Origin: a virus
Lineage: Duplodnaviria > Caudoviricetes
IMG/VR virus record: IMGVR_UViG_3300020043_000527
Location: 1 to 24,240 of that record
Length of the DNA: 24,240 nucleotides
Direction: 5' to 3' (one strand)
A program made the translations under genes and the position numbers. Below, one piece after another: positions 2,831 to 21,351 of this stretch. The notes beneath the pieces were generated by a model. It saw only the letters and a list, made by a program, of their open reading frames with translations. It did not search any database and was not told where the DNA came from. The first letter of the stretch is position 1. Every line of letters starts with the position of its first letter.

Positions 2831-3051
2831 TTATCAACTTTACCATCCAGTTTGTCAAAAATCTTACCGAGCATTTCCCGAACATCTTTTATGTCATTGC
2901 GATAGTCATCGCGGGTGACATAGTTCAAAGGCATACTGCGCACATCGCCATCAAGCCGGTCAATGGCCTGATAGATGCGGTTCAATGTCCAACCACCAAA
3001 GAAGCCTGCTGCGGCTACAGAGATGTTGAATAAAACTTGGTAGTCCATCAT
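2827..3051 (-). CDS. Small membrane protein (N-terminal TM + coiled coil), holin/antiholin-like
   Basis: VLFNISVAAAGFFGGW TM, then YVTRDDY...IFDKLDGKVDK; first gene of the lysis block. Confidence 0.65.
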   Translation of the reverse strand: MMDYQVLFNISVAAAGFFGGWTLNRIYQAIDRLDGDVRSMPLNYVTRDDYRNDIKDVREMLGKIFDKLDGKVDK

Positions 3052-4967
3052 TCGGCCATGCCCGTTAAGTCAATTTTGACTGGCTTATTGTTTAAAGCGT
3101 TTTTGTTTGTTTGCTTTGGAGCCAACTGATTTGGTTGCTTTAAAGACTCTTGAAGTTGTTTTTTGTACTGTCTTTCACGGGCAAACTCAGCGGCGGTTTG
3201 AGTGCCTGGAATCTTAAATGGCAATTTTTGCAAGGCTTCAAGGCCACGCAAAACAGCGCCAGCCGTGTTGGGGTAATTCACTGCGCCTGGCTCTTTTACC
3301 ATCACGTCAGCAATACTTTTCTTCAAATCAAGAAGCGTATCTCTGCCGGTCTTACCAAACATGTAGCCAAGTTTGTCTTCTCGATCAAGCTGAGTGACAA
3401 AATTATTGAAATTGTTTAGACGGATATTGTCTGTTTCATCGCCCTGCTTGAGCAACAAATCTTTCATTCGTTGCAAGGTATAACCTTGCAACTCTTTGTA
3501 AGCCTGTTGGCCTTCTGGCGTTTTCTTAAGCAATGATGTGACGGTTCTCATCTCTTCCAATGAGCCGTCAAGCACGACATGGTTGTAAACATCATCCAAT
3601 GCCACTTTGCGATCTGTCTTGCCAGCTTTTGTGCTTAACAACTGATCAACTCTGTTTACATCTTCAAATTGTTTGGCCAACTGTTTGCGCTCAGTTCTGG
3701 CTGCGCGATATAGATCACCGCCAGCGCCTTCGGTCATGTCATTAATAACGCCTTTGACTTGACCCATAAACCTTGCCGCAGATGGATTGCCTTCCGCTAA
3801 GTTGCCAGCAGACTTGTAAATGTTTTCCAAGTCATCAATTGTTATTTGATTGCCAGTTACCTTCTTAAGCGCATCTAATTTTGCGCCAATGGTTTGTATT
3901 TGCGGTACAGAAATAGCTTCTGGCGCGTTGTCAGCCAACCATTGTTCTAGTTTGGCAGTGTCAACAATTTGTTTTGTTTCACCAGAATCTCTGGCCGCTT
4001 GATAAGCCTGATCAACTTTTTTTAGTTTGTCTTGGTATTGTTTTACCAACGCCTTATCAACAACAGTGCCAACTGCGCGAGGTGTGCTGCGGTCAATTGT
4101 GCCGCCAACTTCCTCGGTCATGCGCTCAAACTGGTTAAGGATGTCTTGCTTTTGGCCAACCTTGAAAGCGCCGTACTGTCTGCCTAATTCAGCTTTAACG
4201 TCTTCAGACACGCCAGGCAAAGCGCCTCTTTGAACATCTGACTCAAACTGCTGTTTTTGTAAATTCTTTTCACGCTCACCAGCTGTTGCGCGAATACCAA
4301 ATTGTTCCAACCGTTGCTGACGCATCAAGTCTTCAGCCGTGCTGGCCGCGCCCATGCCAACCATGCTAGGTTGTTGTTCGCGTGTCATCACATTAGCTAA
4401 GGCATTACGCGCTGGTGCGGTTGCTTGAGTAACCATAGGGCGAACAACTCCGCCAGTCTGCATCATAGCCGCGGGAGCCAAAGCGTTGAGCGTTGTACCA
4501 GTTGCGGCAAGTGTTGGTGGCAAAGCGCCAGTAATTGGCTGTAAAAACTCACCAACAGCGCCCAAGGCTTCTCTGGCCGTCTGTGTGCGTGGCTGATACT
4601 GAACAGCCTTCATGGCTTCTTGGCCAGCGCGAATGCCTTCTTGTGTGCCATATTTGCCACTGGTCAAAGTGCCAACAGCGCCAACAATTGGAGCAATTGC
4701 ACCACCAGCCAAAGTAGCGCCAAACGCCAAAGGCGTTTCAATTACGCCCATAATGCGGTCACGCATAGAAACTTCTGGTGGCTTAACACCAGTCACAACA
4801 TTCTCAGCGCCAGGGATTGCAGTAGCCGCACCTAATCCGATGGTCTTGTAAAACTCCATCTTTGGCATCTTTGAATAAAATTTCTGATGCAATGAATCGG
4901 CCAGAGCAACGTCTGGCACAGAATCATATTGAGGATACTGTGCGCGGAATTCTGCAAGTGTTGCCAT
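3048..4967 (-). CDS. Internal virion / DNA ejection protein (largest of three)
   Basis: 639 aa, helical, Gly/Ala-rich hydrophobic stretch (LAFGATLAGGAIAPIVGAVG); third gene of the ejection block by synteny with P22-like phages. Confidence 0.65.
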   Translation of the reverse strand: MATLAEFRAQYPQYDSVPDVALADSLHQKFYSKMPKMEFYKTIGLGAATAIPGAENVVTGVKPPEVSMRDRIMGVIETPLAFGATLAGGAIAPIVGAVGTLTSGKYGTQEGIRAGQEAMKAVQYQPRTQTAREALGAVGEFLQPITGALPPTLAATGTTLNALAPAAMMQTGGVVRPMVTQATAPARNALANVMTREQQPSMVGMGAASTAEDLMRQQRLEQFGIRATAGEREKNLQKQQFESDVQRGALPGVSEDVKAELGRQYGAFKVGQKQDILNQFERMTEEVGGTIDRSTPRAVGTVVDKALVKQYQDKLKKVDQAYQAARDSGETKQIVDTAKLEQWLADNAPEAISVPQIQTIGAKLDALKKVTGNQITIDDLENIYKSAGNLAEGNPSAARFMGQVKGVINDMTEGAGGDLYRAARTERKQLAKQFEDVNRVDQLLSTKAGKTDRKVALDDVYNHVVLDGSLEEMRTVTSLLKKTPEGQQAYKELQGYTLQRMKDLLLKQGDETDNIRLNNFNNFVTQLDREDKLGYMFGKTGRDTLLDLKKSIADVMVKEPGAVNYPNTAGAVLRGLEALQKLPFKIPGTQTAAEFARERQYKKQLQESLKQPNQLAPKQTNKNALNNKPVKIDLTGMAE

Positions 4968-6442
4968 TATCTAATCCCCAGTCCCAATGGATCGTTTGCG
5001 GTTGCACCTGATATGCCACCAGCCGCGCCGCCTGGCAATCCTTCAAGCGCTTTTCTTGATGCTTTAGGCACACGGCCATAGGTGGTTTCAAGATTTGTTG
5101 TGCTGCGTTTCAACATGTCTTCAATAACTTTAACTTGCTCATTAAAACCTTCTTTTGTTTTAAATTTGCCAGACCATGAAGCAGGGTTAGTCAATTGCGA
5201 CTCAATAATTGACATGTCAGGGCCAGTCAATGCACCAAGTGTGTACAAGTCTTTGACACCCATTAACAGTGCTGTGTACTTGGCCGTCATCCTAGATGTA
5301 TCTGCACCAGAGGGAAGATATTTAGCGCCTGTAAATAAATTTTTATTAATTTCTTCTTTAAAGTCTTTAAGAGAACCAGCCAAACCAGCCAATTGCATGT
5401 CTGTGTCATTAAACTTAACGGGCGCTTCTTTTTTACCGCCAACAGGCATACCAGGCATTCTTGCACCAACTTCGGCAGGCATAGGCATGGCCGCAGGCGC
5501 CGCAGTCTGGTCAAGCACACTGGTCATGCCTGGAATGGCAGGGGTGCGCTGACCAGGCAATGCAGCTGGTGGTTGACGCATCATGCTTGCGCCTGGTGCG
5601 GCTGTTGGTGCAGCCTGAATGCCCATTGGGCCGTACACCACAGGAGTGGCCACGCCAGTTCTTGTATTGATCGCCAACAAGCCGCTTGGGTCTTCTTGGA
5701 TTGACATTGTTGGATTGGCTTTTTCAAACTCAAACTTGGATTTATCAAATGCCAAACGAGCCGCAGCATTTTGATCAGCATAAGTCATGCCTTTTGTAAA
5801 CTCACTGCCTGGCACAAGGGTAGCTGGGCCACCAAGTCCAGCGCGAGTCATTAAACGGCCACCAGTGCCTGTGTCTTGGGCAAAGGTAACTGGTTTGTTT
5901 TCGGTAATGTATTTGGTTGCACCAAGAGCAAACTGTTTTTTCCAATCGTCCAAGCCAGCAGGATCTTCAGGAATTCTTGCAATTTGTTGCATTAGCGGAA
6001 TTTTTGTAAGCGGCGAATCTTTCATTGCCGGATCGTTAACTACCAATTGCAAAAACTTAGCTGCATCCGCTTTATTAGAAATAATGCCTGATATGTTTTG
6101 ATACATGGCTTGCGTATCTTGTGCCAGTTTTGCTTGCCGTGCAAGGTCTTCTGACCGCGCTTTTTCAGCAGCAGTTAAATTTGTAGCAACTTCACGGCCA
6201 GCTTTACCATATCCTGTCAACAGTTGCATTCTTATGTTGGGATCATTTAAATCAGCTCTTGCAAGAAAATTGCGCGTGTTTTCTTCTTCAGCACGCGCAC
6301 GCTCATACTCAGCCATTTGCATTTGATTCAACTGATTGGCTTGTTGTGCGCCTTGAATTTGCGACAACTGAGCGTATTGCGCCAATTGATTTGGAATTTC
6401 AAGTGGCCTAACGCCAAGAGCGATGTTTGGATTAAGCGCCAT
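4967..6442 (-). CDS. Internal virion / DNA ejection protein
   Basis: 491 aa, Gln-rich helical N-terminus (MALNPNIALG...QQANQLNQMQM), Pro/Ala/Met linker; position after the gp7-like gene. Confidence 0.65.
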   Translation of the reverse strand: MALNPNIALGVRPLEIPNQLAQYAQLSQIQGAQQANQLNQMQMAEYERARAEEENTRNFLARADLNDPNIRMQLLTGYGKAGREVATNLTAAEKARSEDLARQAKLAQDTQAMYQNISGIISNKADAAKFLQLVVNDPAMKDSPLTKIPLMQQIARIPEDPAGLDDWKKQFALGATKYITENKPVTFAQDTGTGGRLMTRAGLGGPATLVPGSEFTKGMTYADQNAAARLAFDKSKFEFEKANPTMSIQEDPSGLLAINTRTGVATPVVYGPMGIQAAPTAAPGASMMRQPPAALPGQRTPAIPGMTSVLDQTAAPAAMPMPAEVGARMPGMPVGGKKEAPVKFNDTDMQLAGLAGSLKDFKEEINKNLFTGAKYLPSGADTSRMTAKYTALLMGVKDLYTLGALTGPDMSIIESQLTNPASWSGKFKTKEGFNEQVKVIEDMLKRSTTNLETTYGRVPKASRKALEGLPGGAAGGISGATANDPLGLGIR

Positions 6443-6444
6443 AA

Positions 6445-7260
6445 TTAACCTCCTCCAGGTGGTTGAACCATATACGATGGAACATTAGAATACCCACCGG
6501 TATTTACCAATTGCATATTTTGATTTCTCTGCAATGCGTTAAGCAAAGCATTGTTTTGAGAGTAGTTTAAATATGTACTCAAGCCACCAGTTAAAGCATT
6601 AGCCACGCCCACTTGACCAGCTGCTTGAGCTGCGCCAGCACCAGTCATTAAATTGCCTACATTTGTACCATATGTACCTAATGCGCCGCCAGCACCAGTT
6701 GCGTAGTTCTGACCAGCTTGGCCAACTAAATTAGTGGCAGTTTGACCAACACCAGACAATGCTGCTTGACGGTTATACAACTGGTTCTCACGCGCCACAT
6801 CAGTGTTGTAGCCAGTTAAAGCACGGTTGTATGCGTTGCCAAATTCTTGTGACCCCATCTCTTGACCATAACGCTGTGCGGCTCTTAATGCGCCACCAGA
6901 AATCAAACCGCCACGGGCAGCCGCTTGGCGATCAAGCGCTTTTTGGCCTTCTGCCAAACGGAAAGCGTAGCCTGGGTCAGCTTGATAATCGCCTGCACCA
7001 AACTTAAACGCGCCAGGTACATTACCAGCAGTGCGTTGCATCTCAGCTAAAGCGTTATAGCCAGCCGTGCGGTAAGGCGCTTGATCTTCGCGGGTTTTCT
7101 CAAACATTTCGCGTTGCAGCGCGACTTGTTGATCAGCAACTTGCTTTTGCACATCTGCGGCTTCAGATGCTGCCGCTGCTTGCGTTTTTGCAGCACTTTT
7201 AGCCGTACTTGCGCCAACTAAACTGCTGACCGCTATGGCCCCTGCTACCCATCCAGACAT
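6445..7260 (-). CDS. DNA transfer/ejection protein, P22 gp7-like
   Basis: Ala/Gly/Gln-rich, with the typical DQAPY, DPGYAFRL.EG..AL...AAARGGL.SG.AL motifs. Confidence 0.8.
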   Translation of the reverse strand: MSGWVAGAIAVSSLVGASTAKSAAKTQAAAASEAADVQKQVADQQVALQREMFEKTREDQAPYRTAGYNALAEMQRTAGNVPGAFKFGAGDYQADPGYAFRLAEGQKALDRQAAARGGLISGGALRAAQRYGQEMGSQEFGNAYNRALTGYNTDVARENQLYNRQAALSGVGQTATNLVGQAGQNYATGAGGALGTYGTNVGNLMTGAGAAQAAGQVGVANALTGGLSTYLNYSQNNALLNALQRNQNMQLVNTGGYSNVPSYMVQPPGGG

Positions 7261-8093
7261 GGCAATTCTCCTTGTAACGTGAGTCCAAAATTGACTCGCA
7301 TTGATGCTCTGTAATCTACCAGTAATTCATCGCCAGCGCATATTTTACGCGCAGCAATTGCATAAATGTCATCCCCTACTTTTTCGGGTCTGATATTGCA
7401 GTTAAATGAGTGGTTGATAAAGCGCCCGCCGGGAGTTCTTTTACCATCCACTCGACCAGGGCACACAGTTTCCCCAGCCTCAAAGTCGCGGGTTGCAAAC
7501 AACCCTTTACCGTGAATCGGCGAATCGCGCAATTCCACCGCCACGCCGTCAGGCATCTCCATCAAATCAGACTCGTTATGGACAATTGCGTCCATTTCGC
7601 CTTGAGTCAAACCGATCTGATATAGGAACGCCCCATAATCAATCTGTGCCCTTTGTGCGTCAGTGCGGCTGTCGGCAAGGCCACAGTCAGGCACGACATA
7701 CAAACGGTCTTCTAGCACCGCCAAATCATTGCAGTCGTCTGGGTTGTCATAGACATCTACCCAAACCACTTCTTCTTCAAACACTCGGCCTGCGCGTTGC
7801 ATTCCGGCCTTTGCAGGGAAGTCACATGGGCCGGTAAACACTTTAACGCCGTCATCCGTATTAACCGCAATTGTGCCCTTTTCCACTCGAACGTGGTAGG
7901 GCGTTTTGTGTTCAGCGCCAGTCAAAACAGTCCAAGCGGGGATCGTGATCTTGCGCTCGTAAACGCCAGGCTTGAAAATATGCTCGGTCACAATGTTGGC
8001 CTGCGGCATTTTTAAGAGTTCATTCTGCAACGCCAAAACCTTGCCCGTCATGGACAAGGTTGGTGCAAAACCCTTGCCGTAGGTTACACGCAT
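7245..8093 (-). CDS. Cupin-like + SET-domain fusion (putative protein lysine methyltransferase)
   Basis: C-terminal SET motifs: SPIHGKGLFATRDFEAGE, RFINHSFNCN, GDELLVDY. N-terminal beta-rich cupin-like region (EHIFKPGVYERKITIP...GAEHK...EEVVWVDVY). Confidence 0.85.
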   Translation of the reverse strand: MRVTYGKGFAPTLSMTGKVLALQNELLKMPQANIVTEHIFKPGVYERKITIPAWTVLTGAEHKTPYHVRVEKGTIAVNTDDGVKVFTGPCDFPAKAGMQRAGRVFEEEVVWVDVYDNPDDCNDLAVLEDRLYVVPDCGLADSRTDAQRAQIDYGAFLYQIGLTQGEMDAIVHNESDLMEMPDGVAVELRDSPIHGKGLFATRDFEAGETVCPGRVDGKRTPGGRFINHSFNCNIRPEKVGDDIYAIAARKICAGDELLVDYRASMRVNFGLTLQGELPCLDG

Positions 8094-8428
8094 TAGGTCA
8101 CCTCACGGCCGCTGACGCGGATATTGATTGCGCTGGCTGTGCCTGCGATTGTACTGATAAAGTCGCCAACGCCAAGCACTTGACCGACTAGTTCTGGGAA
8201 CGTATAGACCTCAGACGCTTGCAATGTTTTGGTCTTAGTGATCAAGTTGGTGTTGCCAGCAGAGCCAGCAACCGTGACCAAGTTGACGCTGATCGTAGCG
8301 GCAGACGCGCTAATGTTAGTCGCGGTGAACTTGTCAATAATGGCCGTAACGCCAGTCGCTGTGTATTGCGTGACTTGGGTTGCTTCGGCAAATTTAGCCG
8401 GTACTAATACTTTCACAGATACGGTCAT
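8093..8428 (-). CDS. Small beta-rich virion protein
   Basis: 111 aa, Thr/Ala/Val-rich, coupled within the tail block. Confidence 0.6.
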   Translation of the reverse strand: MTVSVKVLVPAKFAEATQVTQYTATGVTAIIDKFTATNISASAATISVNLVTVAGSAGNTNLITKTKTLQASEVYTFPELVGQVLGVGDFISTIAGTASAINIRVSGREVT

Positions 8429-8431
8429 GGT

Positions 8432-9727
8432 TTACTCCAATAAGAGGCAGTTATTAGCGGCTTGTTGCATGATGACCCAATTTGTGCCGTCAGACACCAT
8501 TGTCGCCCAATTTCCTACAACTGCCAAGAGGATTGCTGTGCCAGCTACTGTACTGTCGATAGGCACAACGTTGCTTGACGCTGACACCAAAGTCTGCGCC
8601 TGCATGTTTTTAAAAGTCAAAGTGCGGCCAATGTAAGTCGCAGCAGACGGCAAGGTTACGGTGCAAGTCGATCCTGACTTGTTGTTAATCAGCCAAGTAT
8701 CGGTTGCGGCAACCGTAAAGTCAGCCGTCTTGGTGACTGGTGCGCCGCTAGCGGTGTAAATAATAGATGACGCAGGAACGTTCTCCCAGCGCAACTGAAC
8801 CCCATCGTAAACCAGCACATCACCGTTAGCAGGTGTCGGCGCATACACATCAGACAGTTGACTGACCAATGGCTCGGCCTGAACTCTGACAAAGACAGAC
8901 CCAGCGCCAGCTGACGAGGCATTGACCACTGCCGCTACCACAACGTGAGGGATTGGCGCGGCAGGCAGATTTTTTGTTAATCCACCAGCGTATGAAGGGT
9001 TGTAGTACAGGATGTCACCGTCTGCCCAGACCTCGCCATACGGCGTGCCAGTGGTGTCAAACCCCCGCACTAAGCCAAAACTAGAAACCAAGCCAAAGCC
9101 ATTGTTTGCGATGGCTTCTGCGGCAATACCCATAATGAGCTGGCCATTGGTCACGCCAGTAGAAGGCTTGCCCTTCAGCACGCCAGAAGCACCGACAGAG
9201 CCATCAAACATTACCAACTCGCCTTTGGCAATAACAGCCGATGCTTTGATAAAGTAATACTGCGCTTCGCCAACTGGCTGAAGCACGTTAGCGGTCATTT
9301 GGATGCCCAGCGTTGTGCCGCCGTCCCACGCCACAGTGCCAATGTCGGTTGGTAAACTCTCTGGCGTATTGTCAAAAGTTACCCATGGCAAGTTAGCCTG
9401 CTGAAGCGCGGCCATTGTGCCCAACTCTTGCCGTGGCAGTGTCTCAAGCATCTGACGCACGTTTGCAATCTGCGCCTGCAACTCGGCTGACTGAGACGCT
9501 GGCAAGGTCTGCAACTCTTGATTTACTGTGAGTAAAGCCGCATCGTAAGACGCAAGTAAGGATATGGAGTCAGTGGCTAGATCAACATCTTCAACCACAG
9601 ACGTTGCTATGTCTTGCAGCGACAGAAAGAACAAATACCAAGCGCGGTCAATCAGACCCGTGCGAGGGTCGATCAACGGCACTCGCGGTGGCGTGATCGG
9701 CGTTGGCGTCGCGTTAGGACTAGGCAT
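8432..9727 (-). CDS. Tail needle/fibre-like protein (P22 gp26 position)
   Basis: Follows the gp10-like gene; N-terminal coiled-coil, then beta modules including the fibre-type repeat LSQLSDV..PTPANGDVLVYDG...WEN and TKTADFTV...TVTLP. Confidence 0.6.
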   Translation of the reverse strand: MPSPNATPTPITPPRVPLIDPRTGLIDRAWYLFFLSLQDIATSVVEDVDLATDSISLLASYDAALLTVNQELQTLPASQSAELQAQIANVRQMLETLPRQELGTMAALQQANLPWVTFDNTPESLPTDIGTVAWDGGTTLGIQMTANVLQPVGEAQYYFIKASAVIAKGELVMFDGSVGASGVLKGKPSTGVTNGQLIMGIAAEAIANNGFGLVSSFGLVRGFDTTGTPYGEVWADGDILYYNPSYAGGLTKNLPAAPIPHVVVAAVVNASSAGAGSVFVRVQAEPLVSQLSDVYAPTPANGDVLVYDGVQLRWENVPASSIIYTASGAPVTKTADFTVAATDTWLINNKSGSTCTVTLPSAATYIGRTLTFKNMQAQTLVSASSNVVPIDSTVAGTAILLAVVGNWATMVSDGTNWVIMQQAANNCLLLE

Positions 9728-11159
9728 TCGTTGGACTTAGAATAAGTTCTGCGCCCATGATTGCAATCTTCACAGGGTCAGTGCCAGACACTTCATAAAC
9801 ACGGTCACGCAACTTAGTTGTCATGCCAAGCCTACGCCACAGCACGCGCTTGTAATACTCGCCAATCTTGCCCATGGACTTCCAATGCTCGTTTGACCAT
9901 GTGTGACCGCCATCGTCTGAGAAGCGAAGCATGACTTGAGGGTCACTGCCCTGACCAAGATTCAAGCCAACGCCAGATTCGCAATCGAGTTGCAAGGTGT
10001 GCTGGGCCGTGCGGCGCAGATTGTTCTGACCAGTTGGCAGCGCACGCCATGTGCGTAACCACTTCTGGATGCTACCGTTGTCGCTAAAGTCGTCTAGGTC
10101 AAAAGCGTAGATGTTGCCGTTTTCAAAGTCGCCAATAACAACCTTGTTGTTAAACGCCATCTGGCAATTGCCACGGTGACGGGTAAAGTTGCCATCGACA
10201 AAGCCTGCACGCTCATGCCAGGCTTGCGTAGCGGCATCGTAAACCCAAGTCGTGTTAGCACTAGGGAAAACCAGCACATAGAAGCTGTGGCCGTCTTGCT
10301 GGTAAGTGTACGCAATAGCGTCCGATATATCACCGTATTGTTGGATCTGCCACTCAACAGCGTGTGTGGAAATGCGTATCCCTGAATAACCGTTGGCGCG
10401 GTAGACAATACCTTCACCACGGCGGTCACGGCCAAGCCAGAACAGGCCGTTGTCCATCTTGGCTACTGAGTAAGGGGCGGCACAGCCCAACTCGTTAAAA
10501 GCGCCTTGAATGCGCTGTAATGGGAAATCTGTTGCGCCAGAGTCGTACCAGACTTCAATCGAGTTAGTGCCAAAGGCCCAGACCTCACGGAAGTTAGCGG
10601 CCACGGCTACCAAGCCGTCAGGAGAGCCTTCAGTGCTTGCAAATTCAAGAGGGTCAATGGATGTGCCGTCTAGCAGTGCAGTGATCCACAGCTTCTGGCT
10701 GTTTGGCTCGTTGAACACAAAGTAGCCGTCCAGATAGCAGACAGTCACAGCACCTGGGAAGTCAGGGTCGGTGATTTGGCCAAAGGCATTTGTCGTGTTG
10801 TTGTAGATGTAGCTAGGGCCATTGGCCGCAATGAACAACTGCGTGCCGTTGTCAGCCAAACTGACAGGGCCAGTACCAGCCACCGTGCCAATTAGCGTGG
10901 CCACATACGCGGTGGTGATCTTGTAAAGCTGAGTGCCAGACACCACAAAGGCTGTGCTGTCGTTAGACGAGAACGCCCACAGGCCACGGATCGGGCCGTT
11001 GCCAATGGTGTTGAGCAGTTTCAGACCTGGGGCGCGGTTTAGGAACGCAGGCTCTTTACCGGCCTCTGGGACAATCTCGGGGAAAAGATTGACCATCCGA
11101 GCGTCTGCTGCATTGACGCTTCGGGTGACGTAAGTGCTGCCAAGAATCGGCGTTTTCAT
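9720..11159 (-). CDS. Tail hub / packaged DNA stabilization protein, P22 gp10-like
   Basis: VNLFPE, DNGTQL, DGYFVF, FASTEGSPDG, GHSFYVL, TWVYD, SDDGGHTWSNE, WRRLG motifs; ATG at 11159 overlaps the gp4-like stop. Confidence 0.9.
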   Translation of the reverse strand: MKTPILGSTYVTRSVNAADARMVNLFPEIVPEAGKEPAFLNRAPGLKLLNTIGNGPIRGLWAFSSNDSTAFVVSGTQLYKITTAYVATLIGTVAGTGPVSLADNGTQLFIAANGPSYIYNNTTNAFGQITDPDFPGAVTVCYLDGYFVFNEPNSQKLWITALLDGTSIDPLEFASTEGSPDGLVAVAANFREVWAFGTNSIEVWYDSGATDFPLQRIQGAFNELGCAAPYSVAKMDNGLFWLGRDRRGEGIVYRANGYSGIRISTHAVEWQIQQYGDISDAIAYTYQQDGHSFYVLVFPSANTTWVYDAATQAWHERAGFVDGNFTRHRGNCQMAFNNKVVIGDFENGNIYAFDLDDFSDNGSIQKWLRTWRALPTGQNNLRRTAQHTLQLDCESGVGLNLGQGSDPQVMLRFSDDGGHTWSNEHWKSMGKIGEYYKRVLWRRLGMTTKLRDRVYEVSGTDPVKIAIMGAELILSPTNA

Positions 11160-11872
11160 CAATAGTTACCGGCATAGATGTTGAAACGCTGGCGGTTGGC
11201 CACCAATGCGTAAGGCAGTGCCATCACGTCATCTGGGTTGTTGATGCGCTTCAAGTCACGCTTAGAAGTCATGGCAATGCGCTGCACTTGTGGGCTTGGC
11301 TCAATGCCAAACTCAGGGGCAAACTCCATGGCCAAGTTGTAAGTAAACGCACGCAGATAGCCTGGTGGGTAGTACAAAATCGTGGACAGTGTGGCGGGGT
11401 TGTTCAACTCTTGAACCGACACAAAGTGAAACTCCAAGTCCTGCGTAGGGCGTGGGTAGAGATATATCTCAATGTTAGGGAACGTCATGTTGACCCACAT
11501 CACTTGTGGGTAAGTAGACGTCACGGTCTTAACAGCAATACCGTTGTACTGCTGTTGGTTAATCATTTTGATGCCATACGACACGTTATTTGTCGCTTTG
11601 AAGTATGTAGCATCGTCAAGCAAGATGGGGCGAAGACCTACGAAGTCACCAGACGGGCCAAGGGTGCGGCTAATTAAGCCTGCGGGCCATGTAAAGACTT
11701 GATCTTGCGTGGAGAACACTGACAGACGCTCGGTCTGCCAGCTATCAATCATTTGGTTGAGCGCCATTAAGGCGTCTTGAGAAGTAGCAGCAGAGGGCGT
11801 TTCGCCTTCAGCAAGCACACCGAGAAGCCGAAGGGCACGTTCAATTTGTTGGCCAGCGGTGTACGTTGTCAT
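11159..11872 (-). CDS. Head-tail adaptor, P22 gp4-like
   Basis: TAGQQIERALRLLGVLA.GE...DALMALNQMIDSW N-terminus and YNLAMEFAPEFG; position between coat region and gp10. Confidence 0.8.
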   Translation of the reverse strand: MTTYTAGQQIERALRLLGVLAEGETPSAATSQDALMALNQMIDSWQTERLSVFSTQDQVFTWPAGLISRTLGPSGDFVGLRPILLDDATYFKATNNVSYGIKMINQQQYNGIAVKTVTSTYPQVMWVNMTFPNIEIYLYPRPTQDLEFHFVSVQELNNPATLSTILYYPPGYLRAFTYNLAMEFAPEFGIEPSPQVQRIAMTSKRDLKRINNPDDVMALPYALVANRQRFNIYAGNY

Positions 11873-18569: not shown

Positions 18570-18932
18570 TTACGCCAAGAATTTCAATTTGTACAAAGTC
18601 CGGAGATATACCTCAACGATATTATCTATCAATTGTTGCAGTGATGAGTCTGATTTATCACACACATCGTATCTTGCGGCTTCAATTTCAGCAAGCGAAT
18701 CTTGCAGGAATTCAATGATATTAGCCGTCTTTTTGGCCGAATGCAGGGTGATGGGGCCAATCAGACCATGACGGCCTTGGTAGGCTTCAGCAAAGTCGTC
18801 AGCCGCACCAATGATACGGTTGTAAAAGATGTTGAGGGCTTCGTGCTTGCTAAAGCTGCGAGTGTTTAGATGCACGGAATGTGCAACATCCCGCGCCAAA
18901 AACAGCAAGCCTAGAAATTCATTTGCTTTCAT
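18570..18932 (-). CDS. Dps/ferritin-like four-helix protein (DUF5856-like)
   Basis: HSVHLN...SKHEAL..FY...DDFAE pattern parallels the Dps ferroxidase helices; ATGA-coupled to the portal stop. Confidence 0.65.
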   Translation of the reverse strand: MKANEFLGLLFLARDVAHSVHLNTRSFSKHEALNIFYNRIIGAADDFAEAYQGRHGLIGPITLHSAKKTANIIEFLQDSLAEIEAARYDVCDKSDSSLQQLIDNIVEVYLRTLYKLKFLA

Positions 18933-21121
18933 TGTGGCATTCCTTGTGGGGGCATCATTTGTTCTGGTGGCATTTCCATTTCCATAGGTTCCTGCGGAGG
19001 CAGCATCTCAGGCATCTGGTTCATCATGCTCTGCGACTCCATGGCCGCAGCGACCACGCCCATGGCGATGTCTTGAATCTGCTCTTCAGTCATACCGGCC
19101 TGCACCGCAGCAATACGCTTGGTTTCGGCATCGTATGCCTTGATCTGAGCCTCAAAATCCTTGCGCTCCAAGTCCTGCATCTCGATGGATTTGCCGACAT
19201 TCTGGATCATCTGGTGCATCTGCTCCATCTCAGCGCCCATGGCCTGAATCTGTTGCTGCGCCGCCTGCAATGCTGGGTCTTCGTCACCATCGGACAAGAA
19301 CTTAGGATCAATGGTCTTGGCAAAGCGCTTGGACATTTCCTGTGCGCCTGGCCAGTCCATGTTTTTAACGAACAAGTCACCGGCCACTTGCCACAGTTGG
19401 GGATTACCCTGTAACAGCTGAGCCATGGCTTCCAAAGCCTCTTGGCGCTTGGTTGCATAGCCTGGGCCAGTGGTGGCCACCACATCGTACTTGCCAACAC
19501 CAGGGTTGTAGATTTTCTCGATCACAATACCGTTTTGATCCATGATCTTGTTGACGGGTTGCGGCTGGTCAGGATTGATCTTGACCATCTTCGTCTCGCC
19601 GTCTTCACCAATGATGCGAGCGATGCGCTGTGTGTCGTAAATCTTGGGGATCAAGTCCACCAACTGACGGGCCACATGGCGCACGGCACGGGTTAAGTTG
19701 TCACCATAGTGGTAAGTACCTACATCACCCTCACGTTGGCGAGCCAGAATGGCTTTACCAGAGCGTTCGTTGCTCCCCATGCCCAAACTGGCATTGTATT
19801 GACCAGTTGTGGACTTAATGTCCTCAGATGCGCCTGCCTTGGCCTGTAATAGTCCGCTGGAGGCCATTGGCGGCTGTGCCCGCTGGGGTAGTGGCAACAC
19901 GGCGCCTTGGCCGTCTGTAACGTCTGGATTTACTTCGAGGTAAGGCCAGTTGTTCGTGTTGGCTGTCTTCCACTTGTCCTCATAACCCTCAAACTGGCCA
20001 CCATAGCCAATAAACGGAGCTTTGGGCGCCAAAGCCAGCATCTCAGCTTCTTGGCTGACCCAGTAGTTGTACATGCGCTGGGCATCCTTGGCGTTTCTGA
20101 CAAGGCCAGAAATGTAGATACGGCCATCAACCTCAAACTCGTTGCCAACAACACGGATTACGGGGATCCATTTGCCAGCCCACTCTTTTTGTTCGAGGAT
20201 TTCGTAGCCGTTAATCTTGCAATACATCACCCGTGGGCGCTCAGACATGCGTGATCTGACAGGTTTGCCAAACATGCTTTTGAGCATTTTGTCTTCAGGC
20301 GTGCCTTCAAAGGCCGTTTGGTTGCCTGGGTACAAATTCAGCTTGGTTTTGTCGTAGTCAATGTAGTAATAACTGGCAATACGCACTGTGTCTTCATTGA
20401 GCCAGTTGCTGATCGACTGATCGCCTACACCGAGGGACTGAAGCGTAGAAATAGGCGCAGCATCAGGGTACTGGCGCTCATATTCTGCTTTAGTCAGGTC
20501 TTCGGTAATAAAGCAATACTTGGCATCCGCACCCGTTGGGTCTTGCATCAAAGGATCCATGTAGACGCTGAACGAGTTACGAATCCGGCCAATCTTAATG
20601 TCTTGATCGAATGTGTTTTCGTCACAGTACTCGGTCATCAGGGTGATGTAACCCTCGCCGTAGGACACTTGGTTCTCGCAGGCAGTATCGTAGGCCACGT
20701 CAGCGTCAGAGATGTACTCGATATGACGGATCATGCCGTTAAAAACGTCTGCTACTTCCACATCAGCATCGTCATCCACAGGAATAACCCGCGCGCCTGG
20801 GCGATTTTGACGCATGTCATTCGTCACTTGACGAACGTGTTGCGGCAGTTTGTTGATTGTAAGCGTTGGGCGGGCGTTGATTGTCTGACCTTGCACCGCA
20901 CCACGGGTGGCCAGCACGTCAGCAGGCCACTGCCAATGGTTGTCAGGAGATCCGGCATAAAAGCGCAGATCGTCAATTTCGTCTTCTCGACTCTCGGCCA
21001 GTGCGGCGACGGCCATGTCCAACCGAGCGCGGGCGGTTGTCAGAATGTCTGAATCAGACTTTGGTGGTTTGCCGCCAGCAGCTACGTTAGCCGCTGCGAC
21101 TATTCCGGTTGGATCATTCAT
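18929..21121 (-). CDS. Portal protein, P22 gp1 family
   Basis: 730 aa; DDLRFYAG..QW, RPTLTINKL, GLVRNAKDAQRMYNY, SGKAILARQ, GKYDVV..GP.Y.TKRQEA, Gln/Met-rich C-terminal barrel. Confidence 0.93.
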   Translation of the reverse strand: MNDPTGIVAAANVAAGGKPPKSDSDILTTARARLDMAVAALAESREDEIDDLRFYAGSPDNHWQWPADVLATRGAVQGQTINARPTLTINKLPQHVRQVTNDMRQNRPGARVIPVDDDADVEVADVFNGMIRHIEYISDADVAYDTACENQVSYGEGYITLMTEYCDENTFDQDIKIGRIRNSFSVYMDPLMQDPTGADAKYCFITEDLTKAEYERQYPDAAPISTLQSLGVGDQSISNWLNEDTVRIASYYYIDYDKTKLNLYPGNQTAFEGTPEDKMLKSMFGKPVRSRMSERPRVMYCKINGYEILEQKEWAGKWIPVIRVVGNEFEVDGRIYISGLVRNAKDAQRMYNYWVSQEAEMLALAPKAPFIGYGGQFEGYEDKWKTANTNNWPYLEVNPDVTDGQGAVLPLPQRAQPPMASSGLLQAKAGASEDIKSTTGQYNASLGMGSNERSGKAILARQREGDVGTYHYGDNLTRAVRHVARQLVDLIPKIYDTQRIARIIGEDGETKMVKINPDQPQPVNKIMDQNGIVIEKIYNPGVGKYDVVATTGPGYATKRQEALEAMAQLLQGNPQLWQVAGDLFVKNMDWPGAQEMSKRFAKTIDPKFLSDGDEDPALQAAQQQIQAMGAEMEQMHQMIQNVGKSIEMQDLERKDFEAQIKAYDAETKRIAAVQAGMTEEQIQDIAMGVVAAAMESQSMMNQMPEMLPPQEPMEMEMPPEQMMPPQGMPQ

Positions 21122-21351
21122 TCCAAAACCCCTAAAATATGAGGCTCACGCATGACGACATACTCTTTGCCATCTTGCTTAAATTCTTGCCCTACATCGA
21201 AGTATACATGGTCACCAACTTTGATGTCTAGGCATTTTGGCCCAATCGCAACAGCAATGCCAGTACCTAGCTTTTCAGTCTGGGGCAACACAAACAAGGG
21301 ATGCTTCTCAACATCGCGCTCAATGATGATGCAATCTTGCAGTGCTTTCAT
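21118..21351 (-). CDS. GroES/Cpn10-like co-chaperonin
   Basis: KALQDCIII, G.AVAIGP, IKVGDHVYF, DGKEYVVMREPHILGVLE match the Cpn10 consensus; loops shortened. Confidence 0.85.
   Translation of the reverse strand: MKALQDCIIIERDVEKHPLFVLPQTEKLGTGIAVAIGPKCLDIKVGDHVYFDVGQEFKQDGKEYVVMREPHILGVLE

Follow-up and report, generated by a model that had tools for sequence, protein, structure and literature searches.

What a SET domain fused behind a cupin might be doing directly before the first ejection gene of a phage is the question raised by this locus. The window, by which we mean the whole stretch of DNA analyzed (24,240 nucleotides), is a 24.2-kb virus record with P22-like portal, coat and head-closure genes and a lysis block, as determined by Pfam and PHROG matches. 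The position before the first ejection gene is referred to here as the slot and the first ejection protein as the pilot; the genes on either side of the slot are as follows.

3048..6442, minus strand: two more genes, of 491 and 639 aa, which from position and size only are likely to encode the second and third ejection proteins.
6445..7260, minus strand: first ejection (pilot) gene, P22 gp7-like, 271 aa, starting M-S-G-W-V-A-G-A (phrog_598, E 4e-32); proposed substrate on the basis of co-variation.
7268..7273, minus strand: AAGGAG ribosome-binding site of the pilot gene, read from the sequence within the 3' end of the SET gene.
7245..8093, minus strand: cupin-mini-SET gene, 282 aa (protein P0001; ORF, Pfam SET, phrog_34170 at E 2e-39, 1191 homologues).
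8093..8428, minus strand: conserved 111-aa gene, the upstream border of the slot (ORF list, comparison of relatives).
9720..11162, minus strand: P22 gp10-like head-closure gene (phrog_578).

Judging from the sequence, the cupin-SET gene is translationally coupled to the pilot gene; it has a GAGGTG ribosome-binding site, its ATG and the stop codon of the 111-aa gene upstream have one base in common, and its 3' end overlaps the start of the pilot gene by 16 nt. The pilot gene falls within the same PHROG as P22 gp7.

The features of the SET half that bear on its identity are the following.

7287..7544, minus strand: mini-SET core, residues 184-269, with a 29-residue SET-I and without a post-SET zinc cluster (Pfam, alignment; dN/dS 0.092).
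7503..7511, minus strand: SET motif I, G195-K-G197 (G197 in 115/115 homologues, G195 in 114/115).
7407..7415, minus strand: SET motif N227-H-S229 (N227 and H228 in 115/115).
7311..7328, minus strand: SET motif E256-L-L-V-D-Y261, including the conserved Tyr (E256 and Y261 in 115/115).
7581..7661, minus strand: helical pair, residues 145-171, N-terminal to the SET core (model, sequence comparison).

The initial annotation had read all three SET signature motifs in this gene, and they are indeed present as H194-G-K-G197, R224-F-I-N-H-S229 and E256-L-L-V-D-Y261. Pfam SET (PF00856) matches P0001 above its cut-off (E 9.3e-11, 42.5 bits against 22.4), the family profile matches MLL1 at 1.8e-16 and vSET 1n3j at 2.5e-11, and the SET fold is further supported by an AlphaFold model (pLDDT 92.2, pTM 0.83) for which Foldseek returned MLL1/SET8, ranked after cupins. 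An NCBIfam search of P0001 gave no match, PHROGs gives no function for phrog_34170, to which this family belongs, and one GenBank record is labeled by its likeness to vSET. The absence of a post-SET zinc cluster, also part of that first description, extends to the family, with 0, 1 and 2 cysteines after Y261 in 72, 40 and 3 of the 115 homologues, respectively; such a cluster is not universal among SET protein-lysine methyltransferases. The spacing from GxG to NH is 29 residues in 107 of 115 homologues compared with about 64 in MLL1 (counted from the alignment), and since only 29 residues separate these motifs, SET-I is mostly missing. The full SET-I region, which provides the lysine-peptide cleft of SET protein-lysine methyltransferases, is thus absent from the P0001 family.

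The homologue pool comprised 1191 proteins of similar length and 2673 representatives of 50% clusters. Among the best 150 of these 2673 representatives the two domains were fused in both orders, 116 as cupin-SET and 18 as SET-cupin, with 13 cupin only and 3 SET only. The 115-row alignment, consisting of P0001, four close homologues and 110 of the 116 cupin-SET representatives at about 28-88% identity, has S191, G197, N227, H228, N233, E256 and Y261 invariant in every row, and the cupin half has one invariant position. Comparison with 25 close loci gave a dN/dS of 0.031 in the cupin half and of 0.092 in the SET half, which is under purifying selection. A degenerate or unconserved SET half, named beforehand as an outcome that would undo the annotation, was therefore not what we found, the catalytic motifs being invariant in 115 homologues, and the SET domain is deleted in some close relatives.

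The helical pair accompanies the SET core in reversed fusions and in stand-alone SETs as well. Stand-alone mini-SETs of the family occur at L623, L156, L158, L273, L637, L648, L679 and L641, in contexts that include integrative elements, where they follow primase genes, the interval from portal to scaffold gene, and a site ahead of a terminase gene. One family mini-SET lies within an 819-aa 2H-phosphoesterase/LigD-N protein.

We then consider the slot itself. A tblastn search matched 53 phage records, and in all 8 of those examined a cupin gene stands directly before the first ejection gene, which is annotated as such in 6 and was assigned in the other 2 from the same kind of N-terminus. These records span P22-like, VPMS1-like and T7-like lineages, and the slot is a conserved feature of P22-like and T7-like phages; three of the records carry SET (P26218, PH1 and ct1fd225) and five do not (RSK1, BA3, RSB3, VPMS1 and DES1). 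The slot proteins of the latter five belong to PHROG 12032/24280 (CDD PHA00672 according to the VPMS1 record), which is labeled ‘short tail fiber/adhesin’ and is homologous to the N-terminal half of P0001; their fold is that of a cupin, not a fiber. The same position is held by T7 gp13 and P22 gp14, as well as by IVPA and the cobavirus GNAT pc40. In the accessible portions of the respective papers, a cobavirus GNAT at this position is likened to T7 gp13 (PMC6775973), IVPA is equated with P22 gene 14 and linked to T7 IVPA (PMC10386132), and no substrate is named for T7 gp13, P22 gp14, IVPA or pc40; the accessible part of a third describes gp14-like proteins as ejected first and inserting into the outer membrane (PMC8954989). 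According to the P22 record, gp7 loses 20 N-terminal residues to OpdA. The slot proteins T7 gp13, P22 gp14, IVPA and pc40 have a fold unrelated to P0001 and an acyl-CoA cofactor, whereas SAM is the predicted cofactor of P0001, and Pfam and PHROG searches of P0001 found no match to PF11090, PF11039 or GNAT homologues.

The head-closure gene at 9720..11162 served as a slot-independent handle for choosing relatives, and yielded 80 loci, of which 21 were incomplete and 59 complete. The survey of relatives that the initial annotation had called for found, in these 59, a cupin in 27, an empty slot in 20, another gene (mostly GNAT) in 8 and a cupin-SET in 4. The 8 other occupants were four GNATs of one family (two of the four were scanned, both above the Pfam cut-off), one weak GNAT, two members of a DDxxD family and one unclassified gene. 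The idea of a modification slot gains from this result, with GNAT, cupin, cupin-SET and the DDxxD family alternating at one position in close relatives.

Several of these occupants have pilot starts of their own. The GNAT family of close relatives (72-100% identical) pairs with M-A-[I/V]-x-T pilots in 15 of 15 non-redundant loci. Pilots at DDxxD loci start in varied ways, often M-P-[D/E/N]-P, Cys/Gly-rich (M-C, M-G-C), or with a leader before a Cys/Gly-rich segment. The DDxxD occupant corresponds to phrog_21390, an all-unknown family found in the same slot (L070:9566-10039, L107:6186-6644 and loci L737-L856) and carrying W-D-D-L-I-D-x-D, the motif used in the search that collected its loci. 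This family has no Pfam or PDB sequence match and a weak Atlas lead (0.77) to isoprenoid-synthase clusters; that it might be a prenyltransferase is a guess. At empty-slot loci (L059-L138), the pilots often have amphipathic-looking leaders, e.g., M-G-[F/W/L]-[F/L]-S-x-L, or long Gly/Ala-rich extensions.

In order to relate the cupin-SET to the pilot, loci were gathered by SET motifs, by cupin motifs blind to SET, and by protein, and as the pilot we accepted the longest ORF of at least 100 aa that opens with ATG no more than about 30 nt from the stop of the slot gene. The 469 cupin ORFs yielded 359 that qualified; removal of 3 cupin-pilot fusions and addition of 52 loci (one with a hand-set start) resulted in 408 loci falling into 201 lineages at 70% cupin identity, 98 SET-bearing and 103 cupin-only. 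The position that concerns us most in the window is the following.

7255..7257, minus strand: pilot codon 2 (TCT, Ser), which tracks SET presence (sequence, co-variation).

Residue 3 of the pilot was Gly, Ala or Ser in 87 of 98 SET-bearing lineages compared with 9 of 103 cupin-only lineages, where it was mostly Trp or Phe (72/103); the start of T7 gp14, M-C-W-A-A-A, has this cupin-only pattern. The full M-S-[G/A/S] start was present in 83 of 98 and 2 of 103 lineages, respectively. Gene overlap was considered as the cause and rejected, as the pattern persists without it (small residue 3 in 25/28 SET-bearing and 4/35 cupin-only non-overlapping gene pairs). Loci picked by cupin motif alone also had a small residue 3 in 12 of 15 SET compared with 8 of 92 cupin-only cases. 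Within the window clade, Ser2 was found in 85 of 85 SET loci, encoded by TCN in 73 and AGY in 12, with 13 of these loci lacking the overlap. The four SET-less loci of this clade, which represent three independent losses with different deletion junctions, all have Ala2; the possibility that one deletion spread and produced all the Ser-to-Ala cases was rejected on the three different junctions and an AU test (p 4e-6). In six SET-before-cupin loci, where SET is not adjacent to the pilot, residue 3 was small in 3 (p 0.017 against cupin-only) and residue 2 was Ser in 5, a result in the right direction for a SET-pilot link but weak. Of 260 SET loci in which the motifs are intact, 10 have Ala2 or Thr2, and a Ser start is also present in 61 of the 103 cupin-only pilots. 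Taken together, this co-variation of SET with the first residues of the pilot supports the earlier suggestion that the enzyme acts on an ejection protein, and constitutes new evidence for the target of the cupin-SET.

The slot gene lies next to the first codons of the pilot, and the two will necessarily be exchanged together by recombination; linkage alone explains their co-variation among close relatives. On the cupin tree, independent pairs gave p values of 0.125, 0.031 and 0.125 for small residue 3 in three trees, with almost no opposite pairs, so that this trait, the first tested, is not significant in 2 of 3 trees after phylogenetic correction. Ser plus small gave 8.5 same, 0 opposite and 4.5 no difference (p 0.004), and 7.4/0/3.6 in a second tree (p 0.016); Ser2 alone gave p 0.039, both of these traits having been defined post hoc, after the data had been seen. 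The phylogenetically corrected support for the SET-pilot link is modest and partly post hoc. In the SET tree (113 rows), residue 3 changed 30 times among Gly, Ala and Ser and 10 times between small and large, and the 30 changes indicate that this residue is not frozen.

This modest signal bears on the proposal, quite unlikely in our estimation, that the SET domain is an active but independent passenger with host proteins as its methylation targets, either late in infection or once delivered, and that hitch-hiking accounts for the pilot pattern. Same-family SETs are found away from any pilot gene, which counts against a pilot-specific reading; they follow primase genes, precede a terminase gene or form part of an unrelated multidomain protein of 819 aa, and the slot is dispensable, being empty in 20 of 59 relatives. 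A hitch-hiking passenger does not, however, fit well with a Ser2 that is kept across the switch between TCN and AGY codons and gives way to another residue in each of the 3 independent SET losses, with a residue 3 that moves freely among small residues and seldom exits this class, or with pilot signatures that are particular to unrelated slot occupants. Delivery into the host to modify host proteins, which the initial annotation had offered as a second option, found no support in any test run.

Lysine, the usual acceptor, was examined as the target within the pilot. Most SET domains act on lysine, and histone lysine methyltransferases are what P0001 matches best, both by structure and by profile. 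A lysine methyltransferase within the module could dock on, or be co-translated with, the Ser-led pilot N-terminus and methylate a downstream pilot Lys or another ejection or virion protein; Ser2 could then be a docking determinant and not the acceptor, and the stand-alone family members between portal and scaffold genes would fit as well. We nevertheless regard this as rather unlikely. No Lys is present in residues 2-45 of 35 of the 98 SET-linked pilots, leaving no conserved Lys near the N-terminus, and Lys is not enriched in SET-linked compared with cupin-only pilot N-termini (p 0.41), which makes the lysine target implied at the outset doubtful. Additionally, in an alignment of 57 pilot sequences, preselected as Ser-starting, a single column is invariant, and it holds the first residue of the mature chain, Ser1.

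The cupin half is the remaining part of the protein to be accounted for.

7689..8003, minus strand: cupin barrel, residues about 31-135 (phrog_12032/24280, model and Foldseek; dN/dS 0.031).

The description of the N-terminal half as cupin-like and fused to SET agrees with the AlphaFold model (pLDDT 92.2), for which the top Foldseek matches are cupins (tm1459, E 2e-6); short relatives pass the Cupin_2 cut-off (7.4e-7) and Atlas neighbors carry Cupin_2. By alignment, the family His positions 62, 66 and 115 correspond to H62, Y66 and Y115 in P0001, and neither a three-His nor an H-x-D/E...H metal site is seen in this comparison, just as no JmjC-like triad had been visible at first reading; P0001 also has H38 and H67. 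JmjC and the three-His cupin dioxygenases (tm1459-like) share the cupin barrel with P0001, whose stand-alone relatives have three or four His, but P0001 has no H-x-D/E triad and has Tyr at two of the three His positions. N-terminal cysteine oxidases belong among the three-His cupin dioxygenases. The stand-alone cupins mostly keep all three His (69/103 cupin-only lineages), whereas the SET-bearing forms mostly do not (17/98). A scenario in which the cupin decays when SET arrives was rejected; SET absence against the triad gave 1.1/0.3/9.7 on phylogenetic correction, leaving a clade pattern only. The triad was associated with pilot residue 3 in raw comparisons (p 0.003 in SET lineages, 0.006 in cupin-only) but not after correction (1.3/0.2/4.5, p 1), and showed no clear association with pilot residue 2 in cupin-only lineages.

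Of the two roles proposed at the outset for the cupin, reader or second enzyme, the absence of two of the three family His favors the first, and the His-poor cupin is likely a binder rather than a second enzyme. It may recognize the N-terminal peptide of the pilot, and cupin-pilot fusions in which the linker ends before a typical pilot start fit with such a role. These fusions, in frame and via a Cys-containing linker domain, occur at L554:2779-4176 (minus), L514:2545-4209 (minus) and L418:2623-4728 (plus); the L554 linker weakly resembles peptidase C39 (E 0.056, below the cut-off) and stops immediately short of a typical A-T-W-V-A-A start, and the linker may possibly allow self-release of the pilot N-terminus.

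A cupin that has lost its His site, together with a largely deleted SET-I, could also be taken as a sign that the protein is not an enzyme at all, and either escorts or chaperones the hydrophobic N-terminus of the pilot or serves as a structural ‘short tail fiber’. PHROG and RefSeq labels point the same way and Pfam names the T7 slot protein a probable scaffold protein, yet we consider a non-catalytic role very unlikely, as it is in the SAM-binding and catalytic motifs that the invariant residues are concentrated, the model consists of two small globular domains with no fiber, and bona fide GNATs substitute in the slot. A tail-fiber/adhesin identity, i.e., an elongated trimeric fiber, was rejected on the same compact two-domain model and the cupin fold.

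On balance, the SET domain probably methylates the free N-terminal serine of the pilot, with the cupin helping, before or during packaging in phage assembly. The alpha-amine at the tip of the pilot is the predicted target because Ser2 is kept with SET and gives way to Ala2 in three separate SET losses. The host aminopeptidase removes Met1 where the second residue is small. In the pilot, its action would leave Ser-Gly exposed as the first two residues of a hydrophobic segment rich in Gly and Ala; this N-terminal peptide would be bound by the His-poor cupin, and the SET channel, opened by the loss of most of SET-I, would accept the Ser alpha-amine, with a small next residue permitting entry. A SAM-dependent methyl cap would then be placed on this amine and might tune the packaging, stability or outer-membrane insertion of the pilot, a job that GNAT or other enzymes might perform in the same slot of sister phages. 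The co-variation predicts a slot-gene-dependent mass shift on the N-terminal peptide of the pilot.

A broader and distinctly more tentative proposal is that the podophage slot gene (T7 gp13, P22 gp14, IVPA) could be an interchangeable writer on the N-terminus of the membrane-inserting pilot, adding acyl by GNAT, methyl by mini-SET and possibly prenyl by the DDxxD family, with an unknown cupin reaction on X-Trp/Phe starts, each writer having its own recognition start; the cupin-SET would then be a SET-fold alpha-N-methyltransferase specific for N-terminal serine. Should the predicted mass shift on the pilot be borne out, a mis-annotated family numbering over a thousand proteins would gain a function, phage-encoded tailoring of a DNA-delivery machine would be revealed, and SET chemistry would extend to alpha-amines, which would be new for a SET domain.

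Compared with known systems, P0001 shares the SET fold and the GxG, NHS and ELxxDY motifs with PBCV-1 vSET (A612L; PDB 1n3j) and MLL1/SET8, and differs from them in its 29-residue SET-I, an R-T-x-x-G-R family motif, the added helical pair, the fused cupin and the lack of a post-SET zinc cluster; it also comes from a bacteriophage, whose host has no histones, and has a predicted alpha-amine target. With NTMT1/2, METTL13 and PrmA it shares only the predicted reaction, protein alpha-amine methylation. These N-terminal methyltransferases are seven-beta-strand enzymes and not SETs in the part of PMC10293735 available, and the prior against an alpha-N-methylating SET is real for this reason. Among the open-access papers searched, none names a substrate for a slot occupant or describes a cupin-SET fusion. 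As far as can be predicted from sequence, the cupin-mini-SET is a real, conserved new variant of SET methyltransferase for which a specific substrate prediction can be made.

Other arrangements of the slot were observed among the loci collected. A cupin follows a GNAT-looking domain in one fused protein at L430:2449-3291 (plus) and L551:1137-2084 (minus); L551 matches T7 gp13 (E 3e-6), and the GNAT likeness of L430 was judged by eye only. At L628:2797-4224 the slot consists of three genes, encoding a stand-alone SET, an Asp/Asn beta-hydroxylase-like protein (Pfam 2e-13) and a cupin, and the pilot starts M-S-A. At L379, L420, L446 and L522, cupin-linked pilots have a leader of 19-23 residues that ends in a Cys-containing motif and precedes the usual S/A/T-[W/F] start, a layout that recalls the leader cleaved from P22 gp7.

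Elsewhere in the window, a GroES-like co-chaperonin gene lies before the portal gene (21118-21351, minus; Pfam/PHROG), and a DUF5856 gene with the PHROG label ‘starvation-inducible regulator’ lies after it (18570-18932, minus). The gene that follows the head-closure gene (8432-9727, minus) keeps its N-terminus while varying in length from about 130 to more than 1300 aa in close relatives, and is likely a swappable appendage gene.
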